The notes under the pieces: generated by a model
Told to the model about the DNA's origin: nothing
Databases searched by the model: none
Seen by the model: only the letters and a program-made list of their open reading frames with translations
In this document: one piece after another, positions 2-20,358 of the stretch
Numbering within the stretch: the first letter of the stretch is position 1
How the letters are laid out: each line of letters opens with the position of its first letter
Virus record (IMG/VR): IMGVR_UViG_3300009068_000024
Span: 73,504 to 137,503 of that record
Source: a virus
DNA length: 64,000 nucleotides
Strand: one strand, 5' to 3'
Made by a program: the position numbers and the translations under genes

Positions 2-3000
2 GGCGGGTATTACGATAATGTCTTTGTTAATGATGAAGAATTTTTAGATAAATTTGGTGGAATAACCGGCCTAGCTCGTTACTCTGACGAGAACTCAAAC
101 GTTAAGCCTGCTGCCGAACCTGTAGCCGAAGCTCAGGTAGAAGAAGAGCCTAAAGAACTTACCGAGGAAGAACGTCAGGCTAACCGAGATGCTTGGACCG
201 AGGCTGGAAAACTTTACAGAGAATATAAAGCTGCAAGCCGAGCAAAGAATAAAAAGCGTGAAGCTAAGCGCCTAAGACAAGAACTAGAGCAGTTCCCTGT
301 TGTAGTGCTACACGAGAAACTTAGAGAACTTAGAGATATTCTAGACAACACTAGAAACTCTTCAACAGATGAAAATGAAAGAAAAGCGGCATCTAAGAGA
401 GCCGCTGAAGTAACTGACGCTATGAAGCAGCTTAATGTACTTACTAACGAGGGTATGAAAGAGGGATCTGTAAAACCAACTGATCCTCTAAAGTTTAACT
501 TTGACGATCTTTTCAAAGAAGTAGAAGCACAGGATGGCATTTCTGAATCTGACGTTGAAGAAGCTGCAGAAGAGCCAGAAGTTGTAGAAGAACCAGCAGC
601 CGAACCTACAGAAGAACCTAAGAAAAACGTCATTGAGACTGCTGGCGGAGTTCTAGATTTTGATGCTTTATCTCCAATGCAACTAGGAAAAATTAAAGCC
701 CACCTTGACAAGAAAGTTCGCTGGAATGGCGAGGTAATGACCTACCATGAACTTTATAGCAGATTTGCTATCGGTAGACACAAGAGCCAAAACCTTAAAG
801 ATGTTGACTATGTAAAAGGTGAGTCAGTTAAGTCTTGGGGACCTATTAAGTATTTCCTTTTTGTAGATGAAAACGGTGGCATGATCGATGTTCCTAAGAT
901 GGTCTACGATGCTTTCAAGCCAAACAGCGATGATCCAAAATTGGATTCAGATGCCACTGCTCCAGTTCAAGAAGCTGAAATGGCTGAAAGACAAAGAAAG
1001 TGGGATGAGCAAGCTAAGGCAAAAGCAGAAGCTGAAGCTGCTAAACCTGCTGAAGAAAAGCCAGAGGAACCTGTTGAAGCTAAGCCGGAAGAGCCTGCTG
1101 CAGCTCCTGCAACTCCAGTAGAAACTCCTAAAGATCTTGGACCGGTTCAAATAACCAAAGATACAGCTAAGCAATATCTAGCCGAAAAGGTAGATGTTGG
1201 GTGGACTATCTATGGTCCAGATGGTTATGCTCTTGGAGTTGTAGTTAAGAAAGATACTCTAGGTAGAGTTGTTCAGCTAACCGTAAGAGGTCCTAACGGG
1301 AAAGAAACTACATATAACTTCAACATGCTTACTAAGCTCAATGCCTTTAGTCCTAAAGACAAAAAAGATATCGAGAAAGCTAATAAGGCTAAGCCGGCTC
1401 AACCTAAGCCAGAACCTAAGCCAGAAGTTGTAGAAGAACCTACTTCAGAAGAAGCTCCAGATAAGATCTCCCGTGAAGACGGTTACAGACTGTTCAATGC
1501 TGTTAAAGAAGTCTATGATTTCATCCACAGAATGAAAAGGACTGACGATCCCGACGCTGCAAAGAAAGATGCAAACGACAAGGTCAATCAGTTAGCAAAG
1601 ATCTTAAATCCTGAAGATGTAGATGATTTTATTAGGTATGTAAATGCTATAAATAAAGAACCAGCACTTATAATGTCTAGCATAGATTATCAAAAGAATT
1701 TTAGTGATTACTTAGACAAATATGCTTCAGGTCAGGGAGTTGCTAACAACCCTATCTACAGATCAGCTGACGGAAAAGAAATCAAAGAAGGTGATTTCTT
1801 GATGGTTGTAGGTGCAGATGGTGCTTTAAAGAAAATACAACTTAGAATCTTTAGAAGACCTAACCCTAGAGCACTCTCAGATAAGACAGACTTCATCGAG
1901 ACAGGCTACTATCTTGAATTTTATAGGGATAAAGATCCTAGAATTGTAAGGATAGGTGACCCTAAAGAGTCATACTCACTAGATAAGGTATTCCACAGTC
2001 AAAATGAAGCTGAAATTAGAAATTTCATCCTCAATGGACGTAAGAGCGAGTCCACACCTGCAACTGCTGCTCCTATTGAATTCATACCTTCTTCAAAAAT
2101 AAGAGGGCTTCAAGCTGGGGATCTTTTCTATATCTATGAAGCTGGCAACGGCTATGCCAAGCAATACATAGTTGGTTCTAATGGAGAGAGTGTATATGAA
2201 GCAGTAAATGGGGAACTTCCAGGAGGGGCTGAAGAAAATGTTATAAGACCTGACGATCTAGACTCTATTGCAGAAAGAGTAGCTACCGGTAGTGGAGAAG
2301 AAGTTTACAGAGGACTTATCCCCACAGATGAAAATGGGAACCCTCTCTCAGCTAGGCAGCACAAAGCTAGACTTGAGTCGGCTGCTACTAGTGCTCCTGA
2401 GATTAAACCTGAAACTAAACCTGAGCCTGAAGCATCTAAGTCTTACAACAAAGACCTAGAAAATGATCTAGCTGTATTTAAAAATGTTCTAGAGAATGCA
2501 ATTGAAAACTTTAGAAACCAGCCTGGTGCAGACAAGAATATCTACAAAGCTGCAGCTAAAGAACTTTACAATGAACTTAAAAAGCTGAACTCACTTTACG
2601 AAGATTCCACTACAAGTGGTGATGATCTAGAGCAAATTCGTAACGTTTATGACGATAAAATCCGTGATCTAGGCGACGTTCAATCAGCTAAAGAAAAGTC
2701 TAACCCTAGCCAAAACCGTGAGGGCGATCAAAGAAATATTACTCAAGATACCGATCAAGTTTCAATTGCAGCTATAGCAGATGCTTTAGCAAATGGCGAT
2801 ATTAATAATGTAAATTCTAATGAAGACCCGTCTGACATATTTGCATCAAAAACCAATTTCGGAGTAAGCATGTTGCTCAAGCAGGTAACAGCTATGAGAC
2901 TTCTCAACTATATGCCAGATGCCAAGTTTGACGATCTACTCAAAGCTTCTATAGAAGTAGATACACATCCGTTGTTTAGACAAGGTGGCGGTCTAGCTAT

Positions 3001-6000
3001 CTATTACATGGACTTTAATTCTGGACAAGCATCATATTCACCACTTCCAGGCCAAAGAAATCCTGTGTGGATATACAATGCCCTCAATGCAGATATGTCA
3101 GATATAAAAGAAGGAACAGAACTTCTAGTTACCGATGCTAATGGTAGCGATAGTCTTTCAAATGTATCAATAATTACTGTAAATAAAGAGCTTTTAAATT
3201 CCGTTCTTAAAACAATGGGAGATACCAATTCAAACAGTATCGTGAGATTTATAAACGATGAGCTCTTCCTTAGAGTGCACTCAAGTTCTAGTCAAGAAGA
3301 TGTTGACGATATAAAGAAGATAATGATATCTCACTTGATTCACAGCTGGGCAATATCTTCTAATGATAGAAGCCTAAAGTCTCATGCTTTGCAAAGTTTA
3401 GCTAGAGAAATATTTGCTATGGACTCTAATTCAACAGCTGGCTGGAATTTTACTTCAAATCTTGCTGATTCTGATCTTGATATGTATAGGGACAGAGGGT
3501 ATATACCTTATGAAGTAAAAGATTTAGTAGATTTCAATAATTATCTAAAGGGATTTATTGATCAAGAAATTAACGATCACAGGACCGTTTATGCTCAGTT
3601 CTTACATGCAATGTACAATGCTACCCAGGATCTACTAAAGGATCAGGGAATAGATGGTTTCGTTCTATACAGAGGAACTACTTCCAAAGAACTTACTGAA
3701 ACCTCTCAAAGTCTAGGATCTACTGGAATATTTAGATCTAATGTTAAGCAGAGACCGATGTCTTCATGGTCAACTGATATCTATCAGGCTGGTAGCTTTG
3801 CATCTAGAGCTTCTGGCAAAGATACAATAGTTATGGCTACAGTAATTCCGGCTGACAAAATTATTTCATTTTCCGGATCTGGATTTGGATCTTACGACGA
3901 GCGTGAGGTTGTTGTTTTAGGTGGAGAGATTAGAGAAGCTTTTGCTATTAGTCATGGATACCCTGGAGTTGTAGATCAAAGTCTTCAAAATCTCAAGACT
4001 GAGGTTGTGGATCAACTTGCAAATAGTAGAAAGGTTCTAGATACTGACCGAGCAAGTGGCCAGCAGGTAGTTCAGGAACAAAGCAAGCCGTCTCAAAACA
4101 GAGAAAACACTATAAACATTGATGACAATGATGGAAACTCAGACTGGATTAAGACAGTAGGCTGGGACCTACCTATCAACGTTGATAATTTCTTAAAGAT
4201 GTTTAATGACAGGGAGCATCTTTCAAACTTTATGTCTAAGCCTACTGCTGAAGGTATGCCTGAAGAAATGCTACGCAACCTATGGCCGGCTGCTGACAAG
4301 TATTTTGACAAGATAGAGTCTGCTCCTAAAGAAGAAGAGCCTAAATACCTACCAGAGCCTTTTGATCCAAGAAACCCTCAAATCGATCTAGATGAGTATT
4401 ACAACTACGACTACACCAGAATGCCTGATGGAACTCCGTTTAACTCTGAAGATCAGCAGCAGATGGATGCGGTAGAGAGAAAATTAAAAAATATTCTTAA
4501 AGGTAGCGATGGCTATGTCAATCCATCTGCTCTAAAAAATACAAAGAACTTTAGAAGAACTATTTACCAGCAGATAATTGCTAAACCTAATGAAAACTCT
4601 TCTACTACAAGAGAGAGCATTCTTAAGCAAATAGAGTTTAGCGATAAACCTGCTGTTGAGTACTACGATGAAACTAGCGGAGTTAACTACATTAGATATG
4701 TAGACACATTCACAGATAAATATGGAAGAAAATACTATCTATCAACTAATATTGATAAGAGTTCTGGTCGTCAAACTGTAATTGCTTACGATGCACAAAA
4801 CTATGAAAACATGGCTCTTCCGGAAGACTACGTAAGAAATGATCAGCCTGTATCTGGAATTAGTGACGTTGGTGTGCTTAGAAGTTCTGTCTATGAAGAT
4901 CCATCTAAATCTGAAATTCAAAGTGCGTTAGTCAGCTATAACTACCAAAGAAGAGGTCTAGCAACAGCTATGGTGGCTGCTCTAGAGAAGAGAATAGGTA
5001 TGCCAGTAGTTCACTCGGAGCACCTGTCTACCATGGGATTTGCTTTCTCTAACAGCATCGACCCTGGCAAGCCTGAGCTACACAATAACGAGAAATCTAT
5101 AAAACTACAGGAAGACAATGCTCCTTCTCAGAATCGTGAAGGATTCTTCAAGAGAAACAAAGCCAAGAAGGAACCTTTTGACCCTACAGATCCTACCGTT
5201 GATCTAGAAAAGTATTACAACTATGACTACACTAAGCTACCTGATGGCACCCCATTTAGTGTCTATCAGCAGCAGCAGATGGATATTCTTAAAGATGCAA
5301 TTGACAACGAAACCGATAACTTTGAAAGAAAACTACGTATCGATGAGAGAAGACGCATCTATCAGGGATATACTGCTAAGCCAAACTTAAAGTCCGGCAC
5401 TAATCTTGAAAGTATTGAAAACCAGGTGGGACTTCTAGATGAAAATACTTCTAGAATGAGCTATAGCGGTGCCGGTAAGCCTTACGCAGATCTTTCACCA
5501 GAATACAAGCAGAGCACTCAGTATATTGATGAGTTCACTGATAAATATGGTAGACAGTATTGGGTAGTTACCAAGGTAGTAAACGGCCTCGGTATGTCAA
5601 ACGTAAAGATCTACGATAAGAGTAAAAACTCAGTGCAGGATCTTCAAGATAATTCAGAGGATAGAACTCCTGTATCTATGCTAGATGTCTTTAATAACAA
5701 AATTAGTATGGTTTACACCTCAGATAGATACCTAAGAAGAGGATTAGCTACTGCGGCCCTTTACCTAGCAAGAAAGCGTTCTGGAAAAGAAGTTCAGCAT
5801 TCAGAAATGCTAACTAATTTTGGTAGAGCATTCTCCCTTTCAGTTGACCCTAACCCTGATCTTCACAGAAACAGTGAGTCAAAAGATGCCCTATCTAACA
5901 ACCAGCCTTCTCAGAACCGTGAAAGAGAATACCTGCCAGAACCTTTTGACCCTAGTGATCGTAAAATTGATATGGATATTATCTATAACTACGATTACAC

Positions 6001-9000
6001 TAAGCTACCTGATGGCACTCCATTCAACGATAAGCAACAAAAAGCAATGGATCACGAGAATAAAATTCTTGAAGAAGCTATAGCTTCCGGAGATGAATCA
6101 AAAATACGTGCAGCTAAAATTTCTAGAAGACATACATATAATACATTTATAACTGTAGCTAACCCAGACTCCAAAACAAACACTGAAACTATAGCTGATC
6201 AGATTACTTTAGGTAAATCTAAACCTAAAAAGTTCACCGGGTTTGTCCGTTACACAGATAATTTTACAGATAAATACGGTAGAAAATATGTGATGTTTAC
6301 TGACATAAGAACCGATGATAAGGGAGATAATTCTGCAATTGTAACAGTGCATGATATGAAGAGTATGTTCCTTGAGAAAATTTTTGTTCCTGAGGGTATG
6401 GAAAATGTTGATCAATTTGGAGGAAAAAGTCTCCACTCAGCTGCGTTAAAAGTTGTCGATGATAATAGAAAAGATCCAGATGCTGCTGCTTATATTGGTA
6501 TGGTACTTACTGATGATGCGTATAGACGCCGCGGTCTTGCAACAGCAATGCTGTACTTAGCTCGTAAGCACTACAGTAAACCTGTTAACCACTCAAGCAC
6601 TCTTACCATGTACGGTAAAGCTTTCTCTAACTCTGTGGATGCTGGAAAACCAGACGTGCACGATTCTTTAGAATCTAAGCAGCTACAGATTGATCTTCTT
6701 AAGGAGAAGGGTCTTCCTGTAGAAGAGTCTGAACTTGATGGCGATGAAATTGATTACGGGCCTAGCCAAAATAGAGAAGGTACTTCAGAACCATCTATTC
6801 TTAATGAATATCGTGAAGTAATTCCTTTAAATAATTCCTATAGAGATAAGAATGACCCTAATTTAGACATTACTGAATGGACTGGCGAAGGTGTCAAAAT
6901 ATATGGAATAGGTAATGGCGGTAATCCACTGGGCTATGTAAAAACTGAAAAGCTTGCTACAATGAAAGGCAATCTTGCAGATATGGAGAGCAGTACATCT
7001 TCTATAGCTCGGGATCTTGAAGACGGTACTGGCTATTTAGAGCCAGTACTAGTTTGGTACAACCCTCTTACTGGAAAAGCTTTTATTGCAGAGGGAAATC
7101 ACAGGGTTGAAGCTGCACGTATAGCTGGAAGAGAATATGTGCCTGTTGTAGTTGGCGTTAGCACTGTAAAGTTTAAAAATCCAACTAAAATGGAGAGAGC
7201 CGGGGGGGTTGGAGATGCATTTTTAAATAAGGATGGAAGTTTAGATAACTTTGAAAATGTTAAAGATGGATCTCTTATAAATCCATACCACTTATTTAAT
7301 GATGAAGATCTTTTATATCCTAAAACTAATTTAGATTCAAGCAATGTTTCTGGACTTACAGATGTACTCAAAATACAATCAGATCTTTTAGATGAACTTA
7401 TGGCTGAAAAGAAAGAACCCGGACCTAATGATATTGTTTATTGGCACGATCCTGACAGTTTTAATGCCAATAGCTCGATTGGGCATATGGGACATGCTTC
7501 AGAAAAATTAAAAAGTATTACTGCTAAAAACATAAGTGAAAACATGCTGTCTTCCGCTAAAGATATGCTAGATGCGGTTCACTACGCCATAACACTTAGT
7601 GAAGCTGTACGTAATAGAATTGGTTCGATAACCTCAGATACCTCGGAAATAGCTAAAAAAGCTATGCAAACTAGAGTAGATAGTTTAAATAGAGATTCTA
7701 TTGTACTAATAATAGATGACTCTTATGATTCTCCATATGAAGGATTACGTTTAGAAACTTTAGGGGAGATATTGGATAATGTGGATCCTCACGAGGAGGG
7801 GGCTTACGGAGATAAATATGATGATCAAAGTATTGATTACAAAGCTCTTTTAAATGATTATTACGACGATTGGGATAGAAAAACATTATTTTTTGATAAT
7901 CCAAAAGATATGGAAGCACTAAAAGAAAAGGTAGCTTCAATTCTTGTTTCACAGTGGGCAGAAACATCTAACGGTAATGATATGGTTTCTCACGCTCTTC
8001 AAATGGCTGCAACTGAAGTATTTAAAATGCCTAATGGATCGTGGGCGGAGTGGAGATTCCCTAAAGGTCAGTATGGGGATCAAATTAAAGAAAATGCGGA
8101 ATATCATTATGGAATATACGGAACAGTACTTAAAGATTTCTTAAAAACTATGTACGACCTTACTCAGGATCGGTTTAAAAACTATGGAATAAAGTATTTA
8201 ACCCTTTACAGAGGTACTGGAGTAGATGAAGAAGCTTTAAAAATGAACATTGATGTTGAACGTTATGGTGTAGGAGATATTGAAGTATTGCAAAGACCTA
8301 TGTCATCATGGTCTTGGCTTAATGGCAGTGCTTTCCAGTTTGCTACTAGTAGAATAAAACATAGAGCAGGAATGTTTATGGGAGCTATAATTCCCGTTGA
8401 TCAGGTTCTTTCTATTCCTGGAACTGGTTTTGGTTGTTTTGAAGAAGCTGAAGTAGTTCTACTAGCAGGAAAAAATAGACTAGTAAGAGCTGTAATTAGT
8501 GATGATTCTCATAAAGTACTTGACCAAAAAACTTTTATTGCTGAAAATGTGGATAAAATACTTTCTTACTTATCAGATGAACTTCCTAAAGATAAAAATG
8601 CTTTTTACAATTTAATAGAGTTCAACAGCAGTTCTTTTAATGATTCTAAGCCTTCTCAAAACCGTGAAAACAAGTCGGTTGACATTGACAGTAGCACAGA
8701 AAACTCTGACTGGATTAAACCTTTTAGATGGGATCTAACTACTAACGTAAAGAGCTTCCTAAATAAATTTAAGACCAAAAAAGATGTCAAAGACTTTATG
8801 GAACTTCCAGCAGCCGAGGCTATTCCAGAAGATCTAAAGAAAGAGCTAGATGCCAAGGAATCAAGTCTTCCAGAAGATTCTTCAGAATCTGGTGAAAAAG
8901 ATACACCGATTTCTCTACAAGAATTGCACAGAACATTTATTACTTCTATATTAATGGGAGCGGGGGATCAGAGAACTAGGCCTATCCCTGGGATTGGACC

Positions 9001-11698
9001 TGAATGGCTACCGGCTAGCGTTAATGAGGATAAGTTAACTAACCTTGAAAGACTTTCCATACATATGTGGTATATGGATGTTATGACTAATGGAGGAGCT
9101 TCTAATGCAACTCTCACCTCTAAAGCAGCTGATTATCTGACTAAATATGTTATCCCTCTTATTGATAGACATAAAGAAGAGTTTATGCTTCTCCCTAACC
9201 ATGACATTTATATCAACAAAGACAATAATGCCGCTATTAAAGTTCTTAGATTTATAACTAATCCAACTAAGAAAAATGGAAAAACTAACGTAAATACTGA
9301 CTATAGGGCAGCCTCTGCTGCTGGAGTAGCTAAATTTGCAAATAAACTTTCAAAAGTTTTAGCTAAAACAAGATTTAAATTCCCTGTCAAAGAACTTCAG
9401 GTAATAATTACTCACCCTAATATTGAAGATTTCTTTAAGAGAATAGATAATGGTGATGGAACTCATAGGCAAAGATTAGCTGGAATAGCTTTCCCTAACC
9501 TCTTTATTCATGGTCAGATTTTAAACGAAGACGATAAAGCTCCTAGTCGTAAACTTACCGAAAACCCTAGACCGGATGCTACCGATTTAGAGGCCACCAT
9601 TGCTCACGAAATAGGTCATATTCTCCACCAAAAAGGTATCATCAATACAGCTGATCCAGCTACAAAAGACACTATTCGTAGATTTATGAATGAATACCCT
9701 CTAACCGATTATGCAAATACAGACGAAGACGAGTATTTAGCTGAGGCATATGCTGGAATGATGTTGTCTGAAGATGGCATTGGCCGATACAAAGAAGTTG
9801 CTGATTGGATTAATAACCAGATCGACACTGTTGATGAAAGAAAAGAAAAAGCTGCTATAGATCTTCTTAAGACTATGCTAGATAAACTTGGTATTCCAGG
9901 TAGCAGCAAGCCTAGCCAAAATAGGGAAGGTTCTAGAGAACAGATTATTGCGTCTGCTGCAAAAGACATTGCTTCTAGCGGAATAGGTTTTGTGCCTGGA
10001 AAAGTTAAAAATGATATAAGCATAGCAACTGACGGTCCTGTAATAAATATCGAAGGATCTCCTAAAAAAGATGCAGTAGCTCCATCTGATCAGGCTACCG
10101 CTATTAAAAATGAAATAATCGATCTAGGACATATGATTCTAGATGATGCTAGAGCTATTTCAGATGAGCAAGCTAGATCTGAAGGTCTTATCCCTGAAGG
10201 ATTTACTGCTGAAGAATATAGAAAAAAACTAAAGAATGATGCTAGAACTGCAGAACTAAATATACTTATAGCAGAAAGTAAGTTTAAGGCTATGTCTCAG
10301 GATCTTATGAGAAATGCTTTTAATAGACTTTCTTACGAAGATAAAGAAGAGGTTTTCCAAAGCTTCAAAAAAGAAAATTCTAAAAATAGCATATTGTCAG
10401 GTAAAGATAAAAATACTTTTGATGCAGAAGAAACTTTTAATATGCTTCTAGTCGAGTATGGTGATGATCTTTCTCATAAGCTTGCTTACGATTACAGTAC
10501 TCGATATCCAGAGTTTACTTTTGATACCGGTAAAACTGTACTACAAAGAACTAGAAACAGGAGCGGAAAACTAACTAAAGAAGTAGAAGAAAGAAAGACT
10601 TTAGTAGACGTTACTTGGGCACATGAGGGACCTGACACTATTCTAAGTATGCTTACCAAGTGGGCAATTCAAACAGGCAAAATTGACATGTCAGATTTTG
10701 CTCAAAAAGCAGCTGAGATAAAAGAGCTAAGAGATCAGCTCAGAACTTCTCCAAAAGCAGAAGATTTTGTAGAAAAGTATCACTCTATAATTGGTAAAAA
10801 TATTAAATCTCAGATGGAAAAAGCGGGAGTTGAATTTGACTCGGTGCCTGCACATGAGTTTTTTAATCAGTATAAGGACTACAAATATGTTAATAGTAAT
10901 GAAAAATTCCAGGATATTAGAATAGATAGAAATAAGAACCTTATTAAAAATCTAGAAGAAACTCTTAGTTTTATTCCTAAAGATATTATTCTAGCTGGAA
11001 TGGAATATCTAGCTAATACTGGTGGAAAACTTGGGGTTCAAATTTCCGACGCACGTGCGCAATTTAAACAGCACTGGAAAAATAAAAATTTAATAAATTC
11101 ATTGAGATGGAAAAAAGAGCAGGGAGATGGAGGATTCTTCCGTGGGAGATCAACTGACGACTACCTACACGAAGTTTGGCATTTCTTCCAGATGATCAAC
11201 CATGATATTGCAGCTTTAGAGCACGCTTTCTCTTATGACAGAATTAAAGCATCTGACAACACTAATATCATTCCGTCAATGGAACTTTATGGAAATTGGG
11301 TAGAAGAATCCTTCTCCGGGGCAAAGGTGGCAGATCCTTATACTGTGAAGGTATATCCTCGTTCAACCAGTAAGTTTACTACCTTCAGTCCGAACAACCA
11401 CAGTGCCGAAGTTATAACTACTACAATGCAGGATCTATTTACTTCTCCTGGTAGCTTCTCTACTCCTAAGGGAGTTACGGTTAAAACTGGAAAAGGCAAA
11501 AATACTACGTTGTTTAGCGATGCTCATATGGATATAGCTACTGGCATTTGGTATACTGATGCCACCATGACAACTAAAATTGACCCTAAGCTGATCACTG
11601 GAATTGAAGGACTAGATCCTTCGAATGACACTGACTGGGATCTAAAAGCTTTTGGAATCGGTCTACTGATGTCGCTATTGAACTGGGAGAATAAGTAA
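2..11698 (+). CDS. Giant multi-domain (polyvalent-type) virion-associated protein, 5'-truncated: 2x ADP-ribosyltransferase-like, 3x GNAT-like, ParB/Srx-like, 2x HExxH zincin-like domains
   Basis: The frame is open from base 2 (GGYYDNVFVNDEEF...), so the ORF-track start at 305 is not the true start. Motifs: LYRG..SSWS..ExEV twice, RRGLATA three times, EGNHRVEAA, HEIGH..EYLAEAY, HEVWH. Lies just upstream of the prohead protease and capsid genes. Confidence 0.85.
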   Translation, partial: GGYYDNVFVNDEEFLDKFGGITGLARYSDENSNVKPAAEPVAEAQVEEEPKELTEEERQANRDAWTEAGKLYREYKAASRAKNKKREAKRLRQELEQFPVVVLHEKLRELRDILDNTRNSSTDENERKAASKRAAEVTDAMKQLNVLTNEGMKEGSVKPTDPLKFNFDDLFKEVEAQDGISESDVEEAAEEPEVVEEPAAEPTEEPKKNVIETAGGVLDFDALSPMQLGKIKAHLDKKVRWNGEVMTYHELYSRFAIGRHKSQNLKDVDYVKGESVKSWGPIKYFLFVDENGGMIDVPKMVYDAFKPNSDDPKLDSDATAPVQEAEMAERQRKWDEQAKAKAEAEAAKPAEEKPEEPVEAKPEEPAAAPATPVETPKDLGPVQITKDTAKQYLAEKVDVGWTIYGPDGYALGVVVKKDTLGRVVQLTVRGPNGKETTYNFNMLTKLNAFSPKDKKDIEKANKAKPAQPKPEPKPEVVEEPTSEEAPDKISREDGYRLFNAVKEVYDFIHRMKRTDDPDAAKKDANDKVNQLAKILNPEDVDDFIRYVNAINKEPALIMSSIDYQKNFSDYLDKYASGQGVANNPIYRSADGKEIKEGDFLMVVGADGALKKIQLRIFRRPNPRALSDKTDFIETGYYLEFYRDKDPRIVRIGDPKESYSLDKVFHSQNEAEIRNFILNGRKSESTPATAAPIEFIPSSKIRGLQAGDLFYIYEAGNGYAKQYIVGSNGESVYEAVNGELPGGAEENVIRPDDLDSIAERVATGSGEEVYRGLIPTDENGNPLSARQHKARLESAATSAPEIKPETKPEPEASKSYNKDLENDLAVFKNVLENAIENFRNQPGADKNIYKAAAKELYNELKKLNSLYEDSTTSGDDLEQIRNVYDDKIRDLGDVQSAKEKSNPSQNREGDQRNITQDTDQVSIAAIADALANGDINNVNSNEDPSDIFASKTNFGVSMLLKQVTAMRLLNYMPDAKFDDLLKASIEVDTHPLFRQGGGLAIYYMDFNSGQASYSPLPGQRNPVWIYNALNADMSDIKEGTELLVTDANGSDSLSNVSIITVNKELLNSVLKTMGDTNSNSIVRFINDELFLRVHSSSSQEDVDDIKKIMISHLIHSWAISSNDRSLKSHALQSLAREIFAMDSNSTAGWNFTSNLADSDLDMYRDRGYIPYEVKDLVDFNNYLKGFIDQEINDHRTVYAQFLHAMYNATQDLLKDQGIDGFVLYRGTTSKELTETSQSLGSTGIFRSNVKQRPMSSWSTDIYQAGSFASRASGKDTIVMATVIPADKIISFSGSGFGSYDEREVVVLGGEIREAFAISHGYPGVVDQSLQNLKTEVVDQLANSRKVLDTDRASGQQVVQEQSKPSQNRENTINIDDNDGNSDWIKTVGWDLPINVDNFLKMFNDREHLSNFMSKPTAEGMPEEMLRNLWPAADKYFDKIESAPKEEEPKYLPEPFDPRNPQIDLDEYYNYDYTRMPDGTPFNSEDQQQMDAVERKLKNILKGSDGYVNPSALKNTKNFRRTIYQQIIAKPNENSSTTRESILKQIEFSDKPAVEYYDETSGVNYIRYVDTFTDKYGRKYYLSTNIDKSSGRQTVIAYDAQNYENMALPEDYVRNDQPVSGISDVGVLRSSVYEDPSKSEIQSALVSYNYQRRGLATAMVAALEKRIGMPVVHSEHLSTMGFAFSNSIDPGKPELHNNEKSIKLQEDNAPSQNREGFFKRNKAKKEPFDPTDPTVDLEKYYNYDYTKLPDGTPFSVYQQQQMDILKDAIDNETDNFERKLRIDERRRIYQGYTAKPNLKSGTNLESIENQVGLLDENTSRMSYSGAGKPYADLSPEYKQSTQYIDEFTDKYGRQYWVVTKVVNGLGMSNVKIYDKSKNSVQDLQDNSEDRTPVSMLDVFNNKISMVYTSDRYLRRGLATAALYLARKRSGKEVQHSEMLTNFGRAFSLSVDPNPDLHRNSESKDALSNNQPSQNREREYLPEPFDPSDRKIDMDIIYNYDYTKLPDGTPFNDKQQKAMDHENKILEEAIASGDESKIRAAKISRRHTYNTFITVANPDSKTNTETIADQITLGKSKPKKFTGFVRYTDNFTDKYGRKYVMFTDIRTDDKGDNSAIVTVHDMKSMFLEKIFVPEGMENVDQFGGKSLHSAALKVVDDNRKDPDAAAYIGMVLTDDAYRRRGLATAMLYLARKHYSKPVNHSSTLTMYGKAFSNSVDAGKPDVHDSLESKQLQIDLLKEKGLPVEESELDGDEIDYGPSQNREGTSEPSILNEYREVIPLNNSYRDKNDPNLDITEWTGEGVKIYGIGNGGNPLGYVKTEKLATMKGNLADMESSTSSIARDLEDGTGYLEPVLVWYNPLTGKAFIAEGNHRVEAARIAGREYVPVVVGVSTVKFKNPTKMERAGGVGDAFLNKDGSLDNFENVKDGSLINPYHLFNDEDLLYPKTNLDSSNVSGLTDVLKIQSDLLDELMAEKKEPGPNDIVYWHDPDSFNANSSIGHMGHASEKLKSITAKNISENMLSSAKDMLDAVHYAITLSEAVRNRIGSITSDTSEIAKKAMQTRVDSLNRDSIVLIIDDSYDSPYEGLRLETLGEILDNVDPHEEGAYGDKYDDQSIDYKALLNDYYDDWDRKTLFFDNPKDMEALKEKVASILVSQWAETSNGNDMVSHALQMAATEVFKMPNGSWAEWRFPKGQYGDQIKENAEYHYGIYGTVLKDFLKTMYDLTQDRFKNYGIKYLTLYRGTGVDEEALKMNIDVERYGVGDIEVLQRPMSSWSWLNGSAFQFATSRIKHRAGMFMGAIIPVDQVLSIPGTGFGCFEEAEVVLLAGKNRLVRAVISDDSHKVLDQKTFIAENVDKILSYLSDELPKDKNAFYNLIEFNSSSFNDSKPSQNRENKSVDIDSSTENSDWIKPFRWDLTTNVKSFLNKFKTKKDVKDFMELPAAEAIPEDLKKELDAKESSLPEDSSESGEKDTPISLQELHRTFITSILMGAGDQRTRPIPGIGPEWLPASVNEDKLTNLERLSIHMWYMDVMTNGGASNATLTSKAADYLTKYVIPLIDRHKEEFMLLPNHDIYINKDNNAAIKVLRFITNPTKKNGKTNVNTDYRAASAAGVAKFANKLSKVLAKTRFKFPVKELQVIITHPNIEDFFKRIDNGDGTHRQRLAGIAFPNLFIHGQILNEDDKAPSRKLTENPRPDATDLEATIAHEIGHILHQKGIINTADPATKDTIRRFMNEYPLTDYANTDEDEYLAEAYAGMMLSEDGIGRYKEVADWINNQIDTVDERKEKAAIDLLKTMLDKLGIPGSSKPSQNREGSREQIIASAAKDIASSGIGFVPGKVKNDISIATDGPVINIEGSPKKDAVAPSDQATAIKNEIIDLGHMILDDARAISDEQARSEGLIPEGFTAEEYRKKLKNDARTAELNILIAESKFKAMSQDLMRNAFNRLSYEDKEEVFQSFKKENSKNSILSGKDKNTFDAEETFNMLLVEYGDDLSHKLAYDYSTRYPEFTFDTGKTVLQRTRNRSGKLTKEVEERKTLVDVTWAHEGPDTILSMLTKWAIQTGKIDMSDFAQKAAEIKELRDQLRTSPKAEDFVEKYHSIIGKNIKSQMEKAGVEFDSVPAHEFFNQYKDYKYVNSNEKFQDIRIDRNKNLIKNLEETLSFIPKDIILAGMEYLANTGGKLGVQISDARAQFKQHWKNKNLINSLRWKKEQGDGGFFRGRSTDDYLHEVWHFFQMINHDIAALEHAFSYDRIKASDNTNIIPSMELYGNWVEESFSGAKVADPYTVKVYPRSTSKFTTFSPNNHSAEVITTTMQDLFTSPGSFSTPKGVTVKTGKGKNTTLFSDAHMDIATGIWYTDATMTTKIDPKLITGIEGLDPSNDTDWDLKAFGIGLLMSLLNWENK
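2705..9928 (+). repeat. Seven dispersed copies of an 18-nt unit encoding PSQNRE
   Basis: Copies at 2705, 4088, 5123, 5906, 6761, 8651 and 9911, all in frame. The peptide is identical while codons differ. Confidence 0.97.
4343..6700 (+). repeat. Three diverged tandem ~250-aa GNAT-containing modules
   Basis: Each has EPFDP..D...YNYDYT(K/R)(L/M)PDGTPF..QQ..MD, then Y.D.FTDKYGR.Y, then RRGLATA (4949, 5735, 6527), then V.HS..L...G.AFS.S.D. Confidence 0.9.
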
Positions 11699-11700
11699 TC

Positions 11701-12072
11701 GTGGATGAAGAACTAGAATACCCGTATGATGAATGGTCTGAAATTTGGAACTTCATTATAGAAGGAGTAGAGATAACCTGGACTCCTCGTCCCCCATACC
11801 TTATAGGGAATGGATCAGATGATGGCGATCACATAATTTTTCAGATAGAGCAATTTATAGATTCCATAAGATCCAAATCAGACGGCACTTTTCTTATCCC
11901 ACCGTCTGGTCCAGAGTTGCTTAAAAGCATAAGTTCAGCCTATACGGTTCTTTTTGCTATAGCTTCTATATATGGACTAGATCCAGAGATAGTATCTTTT
12001 TCCGATAATGCTCCAAAGTGGTCAGACCTAGACCCAAAAGATGACGATGAAGAAGACTATTCAGTCAACTAA
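11701..12072 (+). CDS. Small acidic hypothetical protein coupled to the giant gene
   Basis: GTG start 2 nt after the giant ORF stop, GGGAGA upstream; 123 aa. Confidence 0.7.
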   Translation: MDEELEYPYDEWSEIWNFIIEGVEITWTPRPPYLIGNGSDDGDHIIFQIEQFIDSIRSKSDGTFLIPPSGPELLKSISSAYTVLFAIASIYGLDPEIVSFSDNAPKWSDLDPKDDDEEDYSVN

Positions 12073-12398: not shown

Positions 12399-15300
12399 AT
12401 GTTTGAATCGGAAAACGCCCCCACATTTTCTGGTAGGGATGGGTCATTGGCTCTATTTACCTACGAAAACCGCGGTGTTGTAATTGATACAGATGTCAAT
12501 CTTGTAGTTCAGATTGGACTCTCTGAAGCCCTTTCCTCCTCTAAAGACTGGGAACTTTCTGAAGAAGAGTTCTCTTCTAACGTTCTAGAATTAGTGTCCG
12601 GAGCTCTATCAGATCTTGACATGAAGATCCTTGCCTCAGCTAATAGACTTTACACTATCCCAAAGGGTGCCCAGGCAGAGGCCAAAAAAGCACTTGAGTG
12701 GCATAAAGAACACCACCGTGGCGGTACACCTGTTGGCATGAACACTGCTCGTATCCTTGCTAAGGGTGGACAGATCGGACTGCAAAAGGTTCGCCACATT
12801 GCTAAATACTTCCCTCGTCACGAAGTTGACAAAAAGGGTAAGGGTTGGAAGCCTGGAGAAGACGGCTTCCCAAGCAACGGACGAATCGCGTGGGCCTTGT
12901 GGGGTGGAGACACCGCATGGCGTTGGGCTCAAGCTATCGTTGAACGTGAGAATAAAGCTCTGACTGCTGACGCATATGCCGAATCCGAGTTGACTTCTTA
13001 TCTTCCAGAACGTAATTATGATTCCGATCTAGAAGACTTCACTAAGTCTATGTATTTAGATCCTCTCTCAGCTCCAGACTTTATTGCCAGAGTAAGAATG
13101 GATGGCTCTGGTATTGATCGCCTATATAAAGTAGTACAAACTGGCGACGTCTACGTTTGGGATGACGGTCAGTGGGACAACATTGGTAATATGAATGGGA
13201 CTATTTGGGATTATGACCGTGAGCTTGATGCTGACTATGACAATGTAGATAAGACTCACATATCTATCGATCCAGACTCTGCAATTATTATATCAGCTAG
13301 ACTTCAACAAAACCCATACAAATGCGTATCAATTTCTGACATTGATTTTGATGAAGCTATGCTTGCAGCAGAGGCCTACCGGGAATTAGACCTGGTTGCT
13401 ATAGATAGATCTCTTATTGCTGCTGGAGAAGATCCAATTGGATCTGACGGATATACTCCAGAAGAACGCGCTCAGAATGCACAACGCCAGTCTAGAGACT
13501 ACGGAGGCAAGTTCGCTCCTCAGGGTGGTAGCGCTCCAAGTGGTGCAACCGAGGAACAAAAAGCTATTGCCGAAAGAACTAAGTATAAAACTCCACCTCT
13601 AGGAGATTATTCTCATCCTCTAGACACATCAGGTATTCTTGGACGTCCGCGCTCACCGATTGATAAGCCTCAGGCTCACATCAAGGGTGATCTTCCTGCA
13701 ATGACTTCTAACGATCTACACAACCTTCTTTACGATTGGGCCGGTTGGGTAGACTCTCAGCGTGCTGCAGCCGGAGAAGGTCCTGCTCACGGTATCCAGA
13801 GTTCAGCGGCTAATGAATCTGAAGTACAAGAAAGTAGCGATGTTTTAGCGTACGACCACCCGCTTCTACAAAAATGGATTAAGTCTGTAAACGAACCTAA
13901 AAAGACTCAGTCAGAAAATGAAGATGATTCTTGGGCCAAGCCTGTAGTTGCTGCTACTGAAGCTGCACCTAAGGAAAAAGGCGTAGAGATGACTCCAAAG
14001 ACATCTGACGTCAAGCCTATCTACCTCGCTGTAGTTGCTCAGGATGATCCTCGTGCAGTTTTAAACCTAGTAGCTATTGTTCCAGAAAGTTCTACATCAC
14101 CTAAGCCTATGACTTACGTTCGCAAAGAAGGTAAGTGGGTCCGCGATCCTAGCGTTTTAAATGATTTTAAGTCGGCTACTCCACCGCCAGTAGTTCCTCT
14201 AGATAAAGCAACTTTAAATGACGTTCTTCTTCAAGTTGATGAATCTTCTAAGCCTGTTACTGCTTCAGTTCTTATGGATATTGATCATTTGCTAACTGTT
14301 TTGTGGGGGCCTGATCCTCTAATTTCTGCCGGTGGGCTTGATCGTAACAAGGGTAAGGCAGAAGAACTTCGTCACTATTGGACAGTCGGTAAGGGCGGTC
14401 TAAAGATTAGATGGGGTACTGGAGGAGATTGGACTCGTTGTGTACGTCACCTAGGTAAGTACCTTGGGCCACGTGCCAAGGGTTACTGTGCCCTACGTCA
14501 CAAAGAAGTTACTGGCATGTGGACCGGTGACAAAAAGCACCGTCAGATCTATGGCCACAAGCGTGGTGGAAGAAATGTCTTTAGCACAGAGTTAATCGAA
14601 TCCACAGACAATATTATTGTTAAATCTGAAGTACTAGCTAGAGCAGCTGATGCAAAACTTAGAGTTGGGCTTACAGCTGCTTCCGGACTTGTTACCGAAG
14701 GTTTTAAGTTTAAAATTCCTTTAGTTATTCCTGAAGAAATGGAATCTGGAGATGGACGTTCGTTTATTCGTGGTGCTTTATCTATTCGTGAACTTCCACT
14801 GCCGCTGCTGTGGCAGATGAAAACTGCAGAAGGTCATATGGGATCTGTAGTCGTTGGACGTATTGACCACATGGAACGCACTTCTCAGGGTATTGGAAAT
14901 GCTTATGGAGTATTTGATACTAGCCCGTATGGTAAAGAAGCGCAAAGACTTATTCAACATGGATTTATAAAAGGTGTGTCAGCTGATTTAGATCAGTTTG
15001 AGGCAAAAGAGATCAAGCCAGAAGCTTCTGGAGATAGCGAAGATCCAGGAAAGAGCAAACTTTCTATAAATAAAGCACGCGTAATGGCTGTTACAATTGT
15101 ACCTAAGCCAGCATTTCAAGAATGCAAAATATTAATTGAAAACCCAACAAACATCCAACAGGAGGATACTATGATTGCCGATGGCATCTACCAAGATGAC
15201 TCGGACGCAGCCAATGTTCAAGCACTAATTGCTTGTGGCATTATTGCCGGTGCGATCCCAGTCGTTCCGCCTACTGAATGGTTTGACAACCCGAATCTAA

Positions 15301-16943
15301 CTAAGGCTACTCCTATTACTGTTGATGACAATGGTAGAGTGTTTGGTCATATTGCGGCTTGGAATGTAGACCACATCGGTTTGGCATTTGGAACAAAACC
15401 ACCACGTAGTAAGAGTGGATACGCTTACTTCCACACTGGAGTAGTTAGAACCGAAAACGGTAAAGACGTTCCAGTAGGTCAGCTAACTCTTGCTGGTGGA
15501 CATGCTTCATTGGAAGCTAGTGCTGCCGAAGCAGTTAAGCACTATGACGATACTGCATCTGCCATCGCAGACGTTCACGCAGGTGAAGATTCCTATGGCA
15601 TCTGGGTAGCTGGAGCTTTACGCCCGAGCGCTCAGCCGGAGCAGATTCGTGCACTTCGTGCTTCAGCTCCTTCTGGTGACTGGAGACCTATCCGTGGTGG
15701 ACTAGAACTTGTTGCTGTATGTCAGGTAAACGTTCCAGGATTCCCTATTGCTCGTGCTCGTGTTGCTTCAGGTGCTGTTATGGCTCTAGTAGCTGCTGGT
15801 GCTCTACCTCTAGCTAGAATGAAAGCAGACCCAACTGCAGAGCTCAATGCTCACATTGAAAGACTTCAAAACCTAAACTTTATCGAGTCTGGTAAGTCTA
15901 CAAAGGCTTCCACTGATGAGTATGCAGCAAAGATTGCAGAACTTTCAGCTAGAGTTCGTGATGGTGAGCTAACCTATATTCCTCGTGATGAACGTCAAAA
16001 ATTAGCTAAAGAAGGTAAAGCTCTTCCAGACGGATCATTCCCTATTCAAAACGTAGAAGATCTTCGTGCTGCTATTCATGCTTATGGACGTGCAAAAGAA
16101 AGTCACAAGTCAAATGTTCGTAAGCACATCATTAAGATGGCCGGTAAGTTGAACGTTCGTCACCTCGTCCCAGAGGAATGGAAGGCTCATTCCGAAGATG
16201 CAGTAACTGCAAGTGCAGAAGATCTTCGTTCTAGAATTACTGTTAAGGCTCTACTAGCTAGTGCAGACGAAGCTAAGGCTCGTGTACTTTCTATTAAGGA
16301 TAGCCTGGGAAAAGCATTAGCGGCTGATGGATCCGTTCCGGAGGAAGCTCCGGCTCCAGTAAGTGAGGATAACGTTCCTGTACCGACAGATGGTGCAAAA
16401 GAAGTTATAGGAAACCCTGAAGAAGAGGGCTTCAAATTTACTCCTGGAATCAATCAGCCGCGTGACTACACCGGACGTTTTCAAGACGTTTTAGCTCGAC
16501 TAAAGCAGGATCTTGGGACATCAGGCCTACAAGATGTAGTCGATGAAGTAAATAACGTTGAGAAGGTATATAAGACTGGTAGCTATGCTGATGCAGCTAA
16601 AGCTGGTCAGTCATTGATAGAGCTACTTGATAGAATCGACAGCAAATCTTTGACCGGACCTTCTCTAGAGAATGTTCGTGCAGCATCTAAAGAACTGGGA
16701 AAGGTTATTGGAAACCTACCTCTACCTTTCGGAGATGAGAATGCAAAACTTAGGTTTAGCGATCTACCGCCTGCCTTGAAAAACCTTATGACAAATATGG
16801 TTGACAGGGTAGGTAAAAGACTAGGTGAGAAAGATGGCAGCCAGGCCACCTCCGATATTGCAGAATTTATGCGTGGTGGAGACCTATTTAGTCAAGCAGA
16901 TATATCGTCTGCCATGACTAAAATGCTTAGACTTCTAACTTAA
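12399..16943 (+). CDS. Multi-domain capsid maturation (prohead) protease / scaffold polyprotein
   Basis: HK97-type protease region ~14700-15130 (DGRSF..LPLPLLWQ..GHMGSVVVGRID..GVSADLD..IVPKPAF). GGAGG RBS; directly upstream of the capsid gene. Confidence 0.8.
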   Translation: MFESENAPTFSGRDGSLALFTYENRGVVIDTDVNLVVQIGLSEALSSSKDWELSEEEFSSNVLELVSGALSDLDMKILASANRLYTIPKGAQAEAKKALEWHKEHHRGGTPVGMNTARILAKGGQIGLQKVRHIAKYFPRHEVDKKGKGWKPGEDGFPSNGRIAWALWGGDTAWRWAQAIVERENKALTADAYAESELTSYLPERNYDSDLEDFTKSMYLDPLSAPDFIARVRMDGSGIDRLYKVVQTGDVYVWDDGQWDNIGNMNGTIWDYDRELDADYDNVDKTHISIDPDSAIIISARLQQNPYKCVSISDIDFDEAMLAAEAYRELDLVAIDRSLIAAGEDPIGSDGYTPEERAQNAQRQSRDYGGKFAPQGGSAPSGATEEQKAIAERTKYKTPPLGDYSHPLDTSGILGRPRSPIDKPQAHIKGDLPAMTSNDLHNLLYDWAGWVDSQRAAAGEGPAHGIQSSAANESEVQESSDVLAYDHPLLQKWIKSVNEPKKTQSENEDDSWAKPVVAATEAAPKEKGVEMTPKTSDVKPIYLAVVAQDDPRAVLNLVAIVPESSTSPKPMTYVRKEGKWVRDPSVLNDFKSATPPPVVPLDKATLNDVLLQVDESSKPVTASVLMDIDHLLTVLWGPDPLISAGGLDRNKGKAEELRHYWTVGKGGLKIRWGTGGDWTRCVRHLGKYLGPRAKGYCALRHKEVTGMWTGDKKHRQIYGHKRGGRNVFSTELIESTDNIIVKSEVLARAADAKLRVGLTAASGLVTEGFKFKIPLVIPEEMESGDGRSFIRGALSIRELPLPLLWQMKTAEGHMGSVVVGRIDHMERTSQGIGNAYGVFDTSPYGKEAQRLIQHGFIKGVSADLDQFEAKEIKPEASGDSEDPGKSKLSINKARVMAVTIVPKPAFQECKILIENPTNIQQEDTMIADGIYQDDSDAANVQALIACGIIAGAIPVVPPTEWFDNPNLTKATPITVDDNGRVFGHIAAWNVDHIGLAFGTKPPRSKSGYAYFHTGVVRTENGKDVPVGQLTLAGGHASLEASAAEAVKHYDDTASAIADVHAGEDSYGIWVAGALRPSAQPEQIRALRASAPSGDWRPIRGGLELVAVCQVNVPGFPIARARVASGAVMALVAAGALPLARMKADPTAELNAHIERLQNLNFIESGKSTKASTDEYAAKIAELSARVRDGELTYIPRDERQKLAKEGKALPDGSFPIQNVEDLRAAIHAYGRAKESHKSNVRKHIIKMAGKLNVRHLVPEEWKAHSEDAVTASAEDLRSRITVKALLASADEAKARVLSIKDSLGKALAADGSVPEEAPAPVSEDNVPVPTDGAKEVIGNPEEEGFKFTPGINQPRDYTGRFQDVLARLKQDLGTSGLQDVVDEVNNVEKVYKTGSYADAAKAGQSLIELLDRIDSKSLTGPSLENVRAASKELGKVIGNLPLPFGDENAKLRFSDLPPALKNLMTNMVDRVGKRLGEKDGSQATSDIAEFMRGGDLFSQADISSAMTKMLRLLT

Positions 16944-19206: not shown

Positions 19207-20358
19207 ATGGCTTTTGATGGAGCTTTTAAGGCCCCCGCTATCGTACCCTCTGCGTTCGGCCTATTTTCTATATTCCCTCCAACTAATCCTACTTCAGGAG
19301 AAAAATGGGTTAGAGGATTTGATCAGTGGTGGGACACTACCCCTAGCTACGTTAGAGTATTAGACGCTAACTACACATCATATACAGTTGCTACAGTAGA
19401 CTCTAACCCTACTGTACCTCTATATAGTCGCCACATCCCATTCTTTATTGAAGTTCAAGATGACAGATCTACTCTAGGTCTCCTTGGTGAAGAACGTATG
19501 GCTCGAGTTCTACGTCAGCTAGAAGGTGTATCACAGAAAGCCTGTGAACTTGAGCTTTGGGACGGTGCCGTTGCTTTGCAAGGATCTTCAACAGATCTTG
19601 TAAACCCGTACCTATCTAAAGGTACTACCCTAACTATTCTTCCTGGACGTAAGTCTGACGGATCGGTTGCAGATTCAACTTCTGATGGAGCTGCTATTTC
19701 TGTTAAACACGGTATTGCTGTTCTAGAGCAGAATATCGGACTCTACTCTTCTGCCGGTGAGCAAGGCTGGATTCACCTTACTCGCGACTCTGCCGCTGTT
19801 CTTAGCTCTTATAATCAAATGGTAGTTGACTATTATGACCCTAATAAAGGTTCTCGCCAACACCTACAAACTTTTGGCGGAACTCCGCTAGTACTCGGCT
19901 CTGGCTATTCAGGTAACGGTCCCGTTGTAAACGTAACTAACAAAGCTGCTGATGGAACTAACGCAACACTAACTACAGCTAATAACCATGGTCTTGCTGT
20001 TGGTGACACTGTAACTGTTACTGGCGTTGACGCTACTTTCAATGGTACTTACACCACAATAACTGGTACCACTGCAACTACTATTAAGTATGCAAAAGCG
20101 GCAACTGTGTCGACTGTTGCTACTACAGGCGGAACTGCACAAATGCAGGCTAACAGCCGCTACAAATGGATTTACGCGTCAGGTGAAGTACGAGTCTATC
20201 TCGGTGACTCTGATCTTGTAAATGATAGTTTAGGTCAAGGCCTTTCTGTCAGCTCAAACCAAAATGACATGAGAATCAAGGCTACCCGCCCTGCTGCGGT
20301 CTACTTTGATACATCCATCCACCTAGGTGTCAAGGTTGACTTGACTCTAACTAACTAA
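19207..20358 (+). CDS. Virion structural protein (probable minor capsid/decoration) with an inserted beta-rich HGL.VGD domain
   Basis: Follows the capsid gene with an AAGGA RBS; Thr-rich insert at ~19924-20145. Confidence 0.6.
   Translation: MAFDGAFKAPAIVPSAFGLFSIFPPTNPTSGEKWVRGFDQWWDTTPSYVRVLDANYTSYTVATVDSNPTVPLYSRHIPFFIEVQDDRSTLGLLGEERMARVLRQLEGVSQKACELELWDGAVALQGSSTDLVNPYLSKGTTLTILPGRKSDGSVADSTSDGAAISVKHGIAVLEQNIGLYSSAGEQGWIHLTRDSAAVLSSYNQMVVDYYDPNKGSRQHLQTFGGTPLVLGSGYSGNGPVVNVTNKAADGTNATLTTANNHGLAVGDTVTVTGVDATFNGTYTTITGTTATTIKYAKAATVSTVATTGGTAQMQANSRYKWIYASGEVRVYLGDSDLVNDSLGQGLSVSSNQNDMRIKATRPAAVYFDTSIHLGVKVDLTLTN

Follow-up and report, generated by a model that had tools for sequence, protein, structure and literature searches.

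The hexapeptide PSQNRE punctuates two giant proteins encoded in the head module of the virus record IMGVR_UViG_3300009068_000024, and the comparisons described here make it probable that this peptide serves a phage polyprotein system as its cleavage signal. The stretch analysed, called the window below, comprises the final 64,000 nt (bases 73504-137503) of this 137,503-bp record, which carries direct terminal repeats; coordinates refer to the window unless marked otherwise. An open reading frame (ORF) at 2..11698 on the + strand runs off the 5' end of the window. The complete ORF (genome 67265-85201, starting 6238 bases before the window) encodes a polyvalent protein of 5978 aa, here named giant B, and according to the ORF list and the whole-genome reading its window part corresponds to residues 2081-5978. 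The ORF directly upstream (genome 57134-66823) encodes giant A, a protein of 3229 aa.

An initial annotation of the window had reported seven copies of PSQNRE, and all seven are present on the + strand, in one frame of one ORF (2705, 4088, 5123, 5906, 6761, 8651 and 9911). It had also called for a scan of the whole genome. A six-frame search gave 11 exact copies, eight in giant B and three in giant A, and none outside the two giants. From amino-acid composition, 0.0007 copies would be expected in the ORF set (40,801 aa), and the Poisson probability of at least 11 copies in A and B is 2e-48. Collagen-like G-x-Q repeats and low-complexity runs aside, PSQNRE is the sole hexapeptide repeated so often in the genome. 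The codons vary between copies (Ser AGC/TCT/TCA, Arg CGT/CGC/AGA/AGG, Gln CAA/CAG, Asn AAC/AAT), and the 11 copies represent 10 distinct DNA versions with both Ser and both Arg codon families in use. Thus, the conserved entity is the peptide and not the DNA, as the initial annotation had proposed from the codon diversity. Recent DNA duplication or gene conversion was considered and is ruled out by the number of DNA versions here and in two relatives introduced below (15 among 19 copies in G002 and 17 among 18 in G004), together with the use of both Ser codon families.

Besides the exact copies, we found three with one mismatch (A454 PSQRRE, A778 PSQNRA and B251 PSQSRE) and two with two mismatches that lie at joints between modules (A1749 PSQLRQ and B613 PSQFRI). 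All five of these decayed copies align with perfect PSPKEE sites in G002, which brings the total in A and B to 16 sites, 11 exact and 5 decayed. Five further two-mismatch matches fall in unrelated ORFs and look like chance. The motif had been described as invariant; this holds within the genome and its closest kin, and it fails across relatives, which carry other peptides.

The motif lies in linkers, predicted to be disordered, that join self-contained modules and end in the hexapeptide. GNAT-like modules, paralogous and orthologous (15 in all, with their flanking motifs), were aligned, and the third GNAT-like module of giant B (5924..6760, + strand; Pfam Acetyltransf_1 E 0.0076) was folded by AlphaFold2 (AF2). 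In this model (mc78ca1795e57; mean predicted local distance difference test (pLDDT) 73.9), a folded core occupies model residues 30-295 with block-mean pLDDT values of ~76-97, except for one surface stretch at 56-65. Both flanking motifs (model residues 21-26 and 306-311), which are the PSQNRE copies at 5906..5923 (B 4049-4054) and 6761..6778 (B 4334-4339) on the + strand, sit in the N-terminal and C-terminal tails, where pLDDT is below 50. GNAT acetyltransferases dominate the Foldseek and VIA lists for this model with modest scores, the best being ESCO1 (4mxe_B, Z 7.4, root-mean-square deviation (rmsd) 4.4 over 113 residues); Foldseek gave no match to it at E<=0.001. FoldIndex, a crude measure with which the sites were compared with random positions, averaged -0.28 at the sites in A and -0.36 at those in B, where the two proteins as a whole average -0.04 and -0.06 (permutation P 0.0003 and <0.0001, respectively). 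Furthermore, splitting giant A at its motifs yields segments filled by whole stand-alone families: a DNA-helicase family spans residues 23-655 of the 770-residue fourth segment, and an ArdC-like family profile (positions 7-303 of 324) begins 8 residues into the last one. The placement of the motif in linkers, as originally proposed, is thus borne out, and the low-pLDDT tails and low FoldIndex values speak against motifs inside folded domains. Around the 16 sites, conservation shows a mild dip within 10 residues (0.53-0.55 versus 0.62-0.67) and no clear asymmetry.

We then compared the giants with those of relatives, for which 65 related loci were taken from a viral-contig scan with the protease region described below and exact 5-mers were counted in all of them; full head modules were taken for four relatives (G001-G004). 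PSQNRE occurs in 5 of the 65 loci (L004, L005, L007, L008 and L012). Three equally close loci without it have repeats of their own, namely PSPKEE six times in L006, PSQKEE and PSPKEE in L009, and PSPKQE and PSPKEE in L011. L086 and L087 carry PSQNRE or PNQNRE, and metagenome contigs gave two with PSQNRE/PNQNRE and one with PSQKEE/PSPKEE. In the full head modules, PSPKEE stands at 19 of 19 sites in G002 and PSPK[QEK]E at 18 sites in G004, and G001 and G003 have PSQNRE with decayed forms.

Alignment showed that these different motifs occupy the same joints in sister genomes. The joint after the conserved ELDGDEIDYG (6761..6778) reads PSQNRE here, PNQNRE in G001 and G003 and PSPKEE in G002. The joint at 2705..2722 (+ strand; B 2982-2987) is PSQNRE here, PSPKEE in G002 and PSPKQE in G004, and the one before the ArdC-like unit of giant A reads DLEDNG-PSQNRE here versus DLEDTG-PSPKEE in G002. 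Every PS-type variant ends in Glu. This switching of the motif in concert across homologues (PSPKEE, PSPKQE, PSQKEE and the GFAQxPG described below) is the strongest argument for a functional signal. According to the initial annotation, homologues that keep the domains with no conserved linker motif would have spoken against such a signal; this is the case only trivially, since it is the letters of the motif that change.

One joint preserves what looks like an earlier state. SAPKEE (4319..4336, + strand), a decayed relic of a PSPKEE-type site, lies between a ~60-aa domain and the first GNAT-like module in all three aligned PSQNRE genomes, and G004 has a perfect PSPKEE there. This suggests that a PSPKEE-like motif is the older one and PSQNRE derived, and that this joint was abandoned, which would have fused the ~60-residue domain to the GNAT-like module. 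A path to the Arg codon from Glu via Lys or Gln was also considered; inspection by eye showed no consistent relation at orthologous sites, and the idea was dropped.

A mosaic protein gives a further view of the relation between motif and module. P0003, a 2680-residue fragment from a library of 1.84 billion proteins, contains six PSPKEE sites. Its first two modules are G002-like (77-84% identity, versus 38-43% to PSQNRE genomes), the modules in the middle match G001 at 84-88% identity yet are flanked by PSPKEE instead of PSQNRE, and the last one is closer to the PSQNRE type (72% identity) than to G002 (36%). PSPKEE nonetheless stands at every junction, and the blocks of similarity coincide with the motif-bounded modules. 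P0003 is either a natural cassette exchange or a chimeric assembly. By these alignments the motif follows the genome, not the module, and the uniform junctions of the mosaic point to one trans-acting reader per genome. The proposal of swappable cassettes gains support from the motif-bounded blocks of P0003 and from the number of modules, which varies between relatives.

The replacement extends to a more distant lineage (L024, L025, L027, L034 and L056), whose protease regions are 67-71% identical to that of this genome. By gapped-pattern counting, its giant ORFs (for example L034:2-7333 and L025:2-7296) have, in the sequence covered, 7-9 linker copies of G-F-A-Q-x-P-G with varying codons. The ArdC-like module of this lineage aligns to giant A from residue 2814 and begins right after GFAQKPG, just as that of giant A begins right after PSQNRE.

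Judged by their domain content, giants A and B belong to the polyvalent proteins described by Iyer et al. 2017. Each polypeptide combines many unrelated domains, catalytic or DNA-binding; together they hold two exonuclease-like domains, a UvrD-type helicase, an ArdC-like anti-restriction unit, two modules resembling ADP-ribosyltransferases (ARTs), three GNAT-like modules, a ParB-like domain and several zincins. Giant A has Pfam domains above cut-offs for RNase_T (1.4e-16), UvrD (2.3e-16), ArdcN (ArdC-N; 4.7e-16) and MPTase-PolyVal (1.2e-28). The last of these, the signature zincin-like domain of polyvalent proteins, lies at A 2990-3107 (PF18818, 100.2 bits versus a cut-off of 27.5) and forms with ArdC-N the C-terminus of the protein. 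PSPKQL at residues 1664-1669 of giant A is kept in four genomes (G000-G003), in PSQNRE and PSPKEE types alike, whereas G004 gave no match; it may represent a site that died long ago or belong to a domain. MuF polymorphic toxins, as Jamet et al. reportedly described them in 2017, have an N-terminal MuF (Phage_Mu_F) domain and a single C-terminal toxin. No Phage_Mu_F match was obtained at E<=0.01 in A, B or the 1514-aa protein encoded downstream, and the architecture of A and B, with many modules, differs from that single-toxin plan.

In the window, where all features of giant B are on the + strand, the first PSQNRE copy is followed by a putative R-S-E ADP-ribosyltransferase module (2723..4087) with YRGT at 3668-3679 and SSWS at 3761-3772. 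It is paralogous to the second such module (33% identity over 280 aa, E 3e-33) and has weak Atlas leads to DRAT, ADPrib_exo_Tox and Mod_ADP_RT (scores 0.79-0.88); it gave no Pfam or PDB sequence match, and PDB sequence searches with both ART-like segments found nothing. After an exact PSQNRE at 4088..4105 (B 3443-3448) come a ~60-aa NSDWIK domain and GNAT-like module 1 (together 4106..5122; Pfam Acetyltransf_1 E 0.0048, below the curated cut-off; module alignment A3). The exact copy at 5123..5140 (B 3788-3793) leads to GNAT-like module 2 (5141..5905), a paralogue in alignment A3 that is 38% identical to module 3. Beyond module 3 and its motif lie a ParB-like domain with the second putative ART module (6779..8650), identified by phrog_1033 (ParB-like, E 5.3e-4) and by the ART paralogy, and then an exact PSQNRE at 8651..8668 (B 4964-4969). 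A second ~60-aa NSDWIK domain joined to a zincin-like HExxH module (8669..9910; HEIGH 9605-9619) has weak Pfam matches to Peptidase_M78 (E 0.0029) and M48 (E 0.027). The exact copy at 9911..9928 (B 5384-5389) precedes the C-terminal HExxH module (9929..11695; HEVWH 11168-11182), which belongs to a rare family found mostly at protein C-termini. Outside the weak hits, giant B has an RNase_T match (4.2e-11), and its Pfam and PHROG matches fall between the motifs.

The domain names of the initial annotation stand in part. GNAT has weak Pfam matches and a fold list dominated by GNAT proteins behind it, and ParB-like and zincin have weak matches. For the ART label, an R-S-E pattern noticed by eye is joined by the weak leads from Atlas and by the finding that the two copies are paralogous.

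The giants were correctly placed in the head module: the gene order is portal (phrog_776), ferritin/Dps-like protein, giant A, giant B, a 123-aa ORF, a 1514-aa protease-containing protein, major capsid protein (phrog_777) and tail genes. As we picture the system, a single phage-encoded protease would recognise the hexapeptide and cut after its terminal Glu, which would release ~16 products from A and B, with predicted masses of 26-190 kDa. From the position of the two genes, with the portal gene on one side and those for protease and capsid on the other, cutting would most likely take place inside the procapsid, and the products would be delivered to the host with the DNA. Cleavage, the bond cut, packaging and delivery are predictions from sequence.

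The 1514-aa protein (12399..16943, + strand), which matches phrog_18402 and phrog_3244 'head maturation protease', contains a candidate reader of the motif, encoded ~700 bp downstream of giant B. Its protease core (residues 779-903, 14733..15107, + strand) has a His and a Ser (H35 and S83 of the alignment, His813 and Ser861) that are invariant in 34 of 34 aligned sequences, and phrog_3244 matches residues 811-912 (E 5.5e-5). An AF2 model of residues 779-1188 built with 34 relatives (m2e5ce762ae93) reached a mean pLDDT of only 60. VIA-align placed T4 gp21 at the top of its ranking for this model (5jbl_A, Z 8.7, rmsd 2.2 Å over 104 residues within model residues 1-125), followed by the varicella-zoster virus (VZV) protease (Z 7.1); Foldseek gave no match at E<=0.001, and a PDB sequence search with the protease alignment found nothing. 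The VIA-align ranking, the phrog_3244 match and the invariant His and Ser together indicate a protease of the assemblin/gp21 fold in the head module. A second conserved domain follows the core (15249-15809, residues 951-1137) with many invariant His, Asp and Glu residues and a match to phrog_18402 (E 6.9e-56). We tentatively propose that the reader is this neighbouring T4 gp21/assemblin-like capsid protease; it would be rather surprising if it were one of the zincin domains in the polyproteins, and some other protease is a doubtful candidate.

Several observations weigh against this picture. The first group concerns the reach of the motif. In T4, phiKZ and SPN3US one motif serves all head substrates, whereas here the capsid and the scaffold/protease proteins are without it in every lineage examined. 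No match within 2 mismatches was found in the capsid protein, the portal or the Dps-like protein, nor in those of the relatives. The 1514-aa protein has the near-motifs PIQNVE (2 mismatches, as read in this genome) and PSGATE (not conserved), and no motif of the PS..E type shared with relatives. The capsid N-terminus, aligned for 7 genomes, shows neither a motif nor any group-specific change, so that processing of capsid, scaffold and protease by the same motif finds no support. Within giant B, residues 1301-2987 include long Pro/Glu/Lys-rich stretches without the motif, and not every linker is therefore marked. GFAQxPG has no Glu. Moreover, gapped-pattern counting in 22 of the 65 loci found 17 without a repeated motif above shuffles, which means that this phage group does not have the trait in general, and several loci have little or no upstream sequence, so that absence of the motif there says little. 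In the cultured relatives, the giant protein of DSL-LC01 (3289 aa) and genes 73-74 of Microbacterium phage Big4 show no junction motif, only Pro/Glu/Ala low complexity.

The second group of objections concerns co-variation, which ties neither the protease encoded at 12399 nor any of the HExxH domains to the motif. In the protease core (~780-930, ~150 residues), 4 positions differ between the PSQNRE and PSPK groups (804, 880, 881 and 916); all four changes are mild and two lie in a low-confidence loop. The motif groups are also clades, and the comparison thus amounts to one event. The MPTase-PolyVal domain of giant A has 0-2 group-specific positions per 60 residues and is unchanged with the motif. 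The C-terminal HExxH module of giant B was considered as a co-varying reader and is weakened by P0003, where a module of the PSQNRE type occurs with PSPKEE sites. A complex prediction of the protease core (135 residues, alignment A1) with a 40-residue PSQNRE linker returned a score of 0.00 against a mark of 0.32, which is no answer and speaks neither for nor against binding.

The lack of the motif in the capsid and scaffold/protease proteins is what would be expected of a reader dedicated to A and B, and it leads to the strongest alternative, in which cutting would fall to one of the polyproteins' own zincin domains, acting in cis or in trans and either within the capsid or once injected, with the capsid protease uninvolved. 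Candidates are at hand: giant A ends in ArdC-N and MPTase-PolyVal, giant B has three HExxH sites (residues 868, 5282 and 5803), and the giant ORF of the GFAQxPG lineage also has an ArdC-like zincin at its end. The C-terminal HExxH module of giant B is its most group-divergent conserved module (85-97% identity among PSQNRE genomes, 34-36% to those with PSPK motifs). Its family has 45 relatives at E<=0.001 among 1.84 billion representatives, and in 35 of the 45 the best-matching stretch reaches to within 25 residues of the C-terminus. Processing of polyvalent proteins by zincins is also predicted in the text of PMC5512222 drawn on here. Against this reading, MPTase-PolyVal does not change with the motif, the HEIGH module is missing from G002 and P0003, and P0003, possibly a chimeric assembly, pairs its PSQNRE-type C-terminal module (72%) with six PSPKEE sites. 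Furthermore, BLAST at E 1e-5 found no counterpart of the C-terminal HExxH module in the GFAQxPG lineage. We consider cutting by a zincin unlikely on balance.

Any single binding partner would likewise produce a motif that stays constant inside one genome and changes from lineage to lineage. PSQNRE might then remain uncut, either as a docking peptide that anchors the giants at many points to a partner in the capsid interior, the scaffold or the portal, or as a tag for a modifying enzyme. Capsid-targeting peptides are known for T4 internal proteins, according to the relevant passages of PMC5694885, and two ORFs nearby differ by motif group. The first, of 123 aa, lies between giant B and the protease gene (11701..12072, + strand), gave no match in PHROG and Pfam searches, and is 87% identical to its counterpart in G001 and 46-54% identical to those in the PSPK-type genomes G002, G004 and L009. 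The second, of 383 aa, follows the capsid gene (19207-20358) and is 85% identical to that of G001 and 43-46% to those of PSPK-type genomes. Docking would nevertheless have no need for a site at every module boundary, or at boundaries only, and one targeting signal suffices per polypeptide. Portal and capsid protein also vary little across the motif groups, with 85-89% identity for the portal and 80-88% for the capsid protein (80-89% for portal, protease protein and capsid protein taken together), and the capsid N-terminus is free of group-specific change. Finally, the decay of a single site was tolerated at SAPKEE and left two modules fused, which suits optional cuts better than avidity. An uncut docking peptide or tag therefore seems improbable to us.

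That no phage protein examined changes cleanly with the motif would fit cutting by a host protease after injection, with the motif shifting upon a change of host. This reading is very hard to sustain, since we know of no bacterial endoprotease of such six-residue specificity and the portal and capsid identities across motif types lower the likelihood of a jump to another host. A 2A-like ribosome skip, Asn-mediated self-cleavage and a transglutaminase site were set aside by reasoning, because the variant motifs are without the required residues.

Other features of the head module were noted alongside. The major capsid protein (17087..19135, + strand; phrog_777 E 8.5e-74) has an acidic N-terminal extension of ~250 aa (17087-17840), rich in Pro, Glu and Val, ahead of the capsid-family match and near-identical in the 7 genomes compared. 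By capsid protein, the closest cultured phages are Actinomycetia phage DSL-LC01 (63% identity) and Microbacterium, Arthrobacter and Gordonia phages. The gene that separates the portal from giant A (genome 55959-57116) specifies a ferritin/Dps-like domain (Pfam Ferritin 8.1e-15) joined to DUF5824; this slot is unusual for a Dps-like protein. At the start of the record (genome 1-3492, minus strand), an ORF of 1163 aa with ~74 collagen-like G-x-Q triplet units probably encodes a fibre protein.

If PSQNRE is indeed a cleavage signal, the two giants may exemplify a polyprotein strategy of double-stranded DNA (dsDNA) phages, a wider proposal that we regard as possible. It would comprise a private code of 6-7 residues, a co-evolving phage protease, ~16 effectors made from two capsid-loaded giants, turnover of the code, and modules that can move if their junctions are rewritten. 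The code would then double as a plug-and-play socket into which effector cassettes fit and as a barrier to compatibility among lineages. Polyvalent proteins are regarded as the phages' first strike against host defences, and how a protein of 3,000-6,000 residues becomes a set of working enzymes has so far only been guessed. A genome-uniform junction peptide makes that guess experimentally simple, with PSQNRE, PSPKEE and GFAQxPG as natural controls of specificity, and it lets the mature products be predicted from sequence alone. Counting repeated linker peptides offers a way to find such systems in metagenomes, and the joint change of a protease and its dozens of sites makes a case for study. 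Should the specificity be as long as it appears, the enzyme could be useful as a sequence-specific protease.

Part of this is already in print, as far as the sources drawn on here extend: prohead-protease processing at short motifs, and the predicted cutting of polyvalent proteins by zincin or assemblin-like peptidases. A literature search with PSQNRE matched no paper, and PSPKEE, PSPKQE, PSQKEE and GPSPKEE matched only a paper on proteomics software, judged irrelevant by title and abstract. In searches of the openly available literature on polyvalent proteins, no paper describing a junction motif came up. What these searches did not bring to light is a long peptide, the same throughout a genome, that stands at the junctions of full-size modules and is replaced from one sister lineage to the next.

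Among known systems, the head proteases of T4, phiKZ, 201phi2-1 and SPN3US cut C-terminal to Glu, T4 Alt is trimmed at both ends with ITE and LTE sites, and the site of the SPN3US protease is A-X-E, as given in the passages used of PMC5694885 and PMC10052503. The giants resemble the substrates of T4 gp21, phiKZ gp175 and SPN3US gp245, as those passages present them, in the head-gene location, the gp21-fold protease, the site ending in Glu and the presence of several sites per substrate. They differ in that 6-7 residues are fixed here versus 2 of 3 there, the predicted cuts would separate full-size enzymes instead of trimming propeptides, and the motif is rewritten wholesale between sister lineages. 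Polyvalent proteins are predicted by Iyer et al. 2017 (PMC5512222), in its text on processing, to be packaged in the head and processed by zincin or assemblin-like peptidases. Like them, the giants are large multi-domain proteins with MPTase-PolyVal, ArdC-N, ART, ParB, helicase and nuclease domains; unlike here, no cleavage motif or lineage-specific code appears in the passages drawn on from that paper, in which the word 'linker' does not occur. Phage P1 proteins of the DdrB/DarB type are likewise covered there: they are large, enter the head, have a zincin at the C-terminus and are processed ahead of packaging or in its course. They are cut once, whereas a repeated code is found here. For the C-terminal module of giant B, Atlas gave a 'DdrB domain' lead that is weak, its score of 0.84 falling short of what would make it more than a lead.

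A parallel in the way of working comes from RNA viruses. There, dedicated viral proteases such as potyvirus NIa and picornavirus 3C cut polyproteins at long consensus sites that match the virus's own protease. The giants belong to a dsDNA tailed phage, carry accessory effectors instead of a replication and capsid set, and share no homology with these polyproteins; as in them, one long consensus stands at each junction and differs between related viruses.

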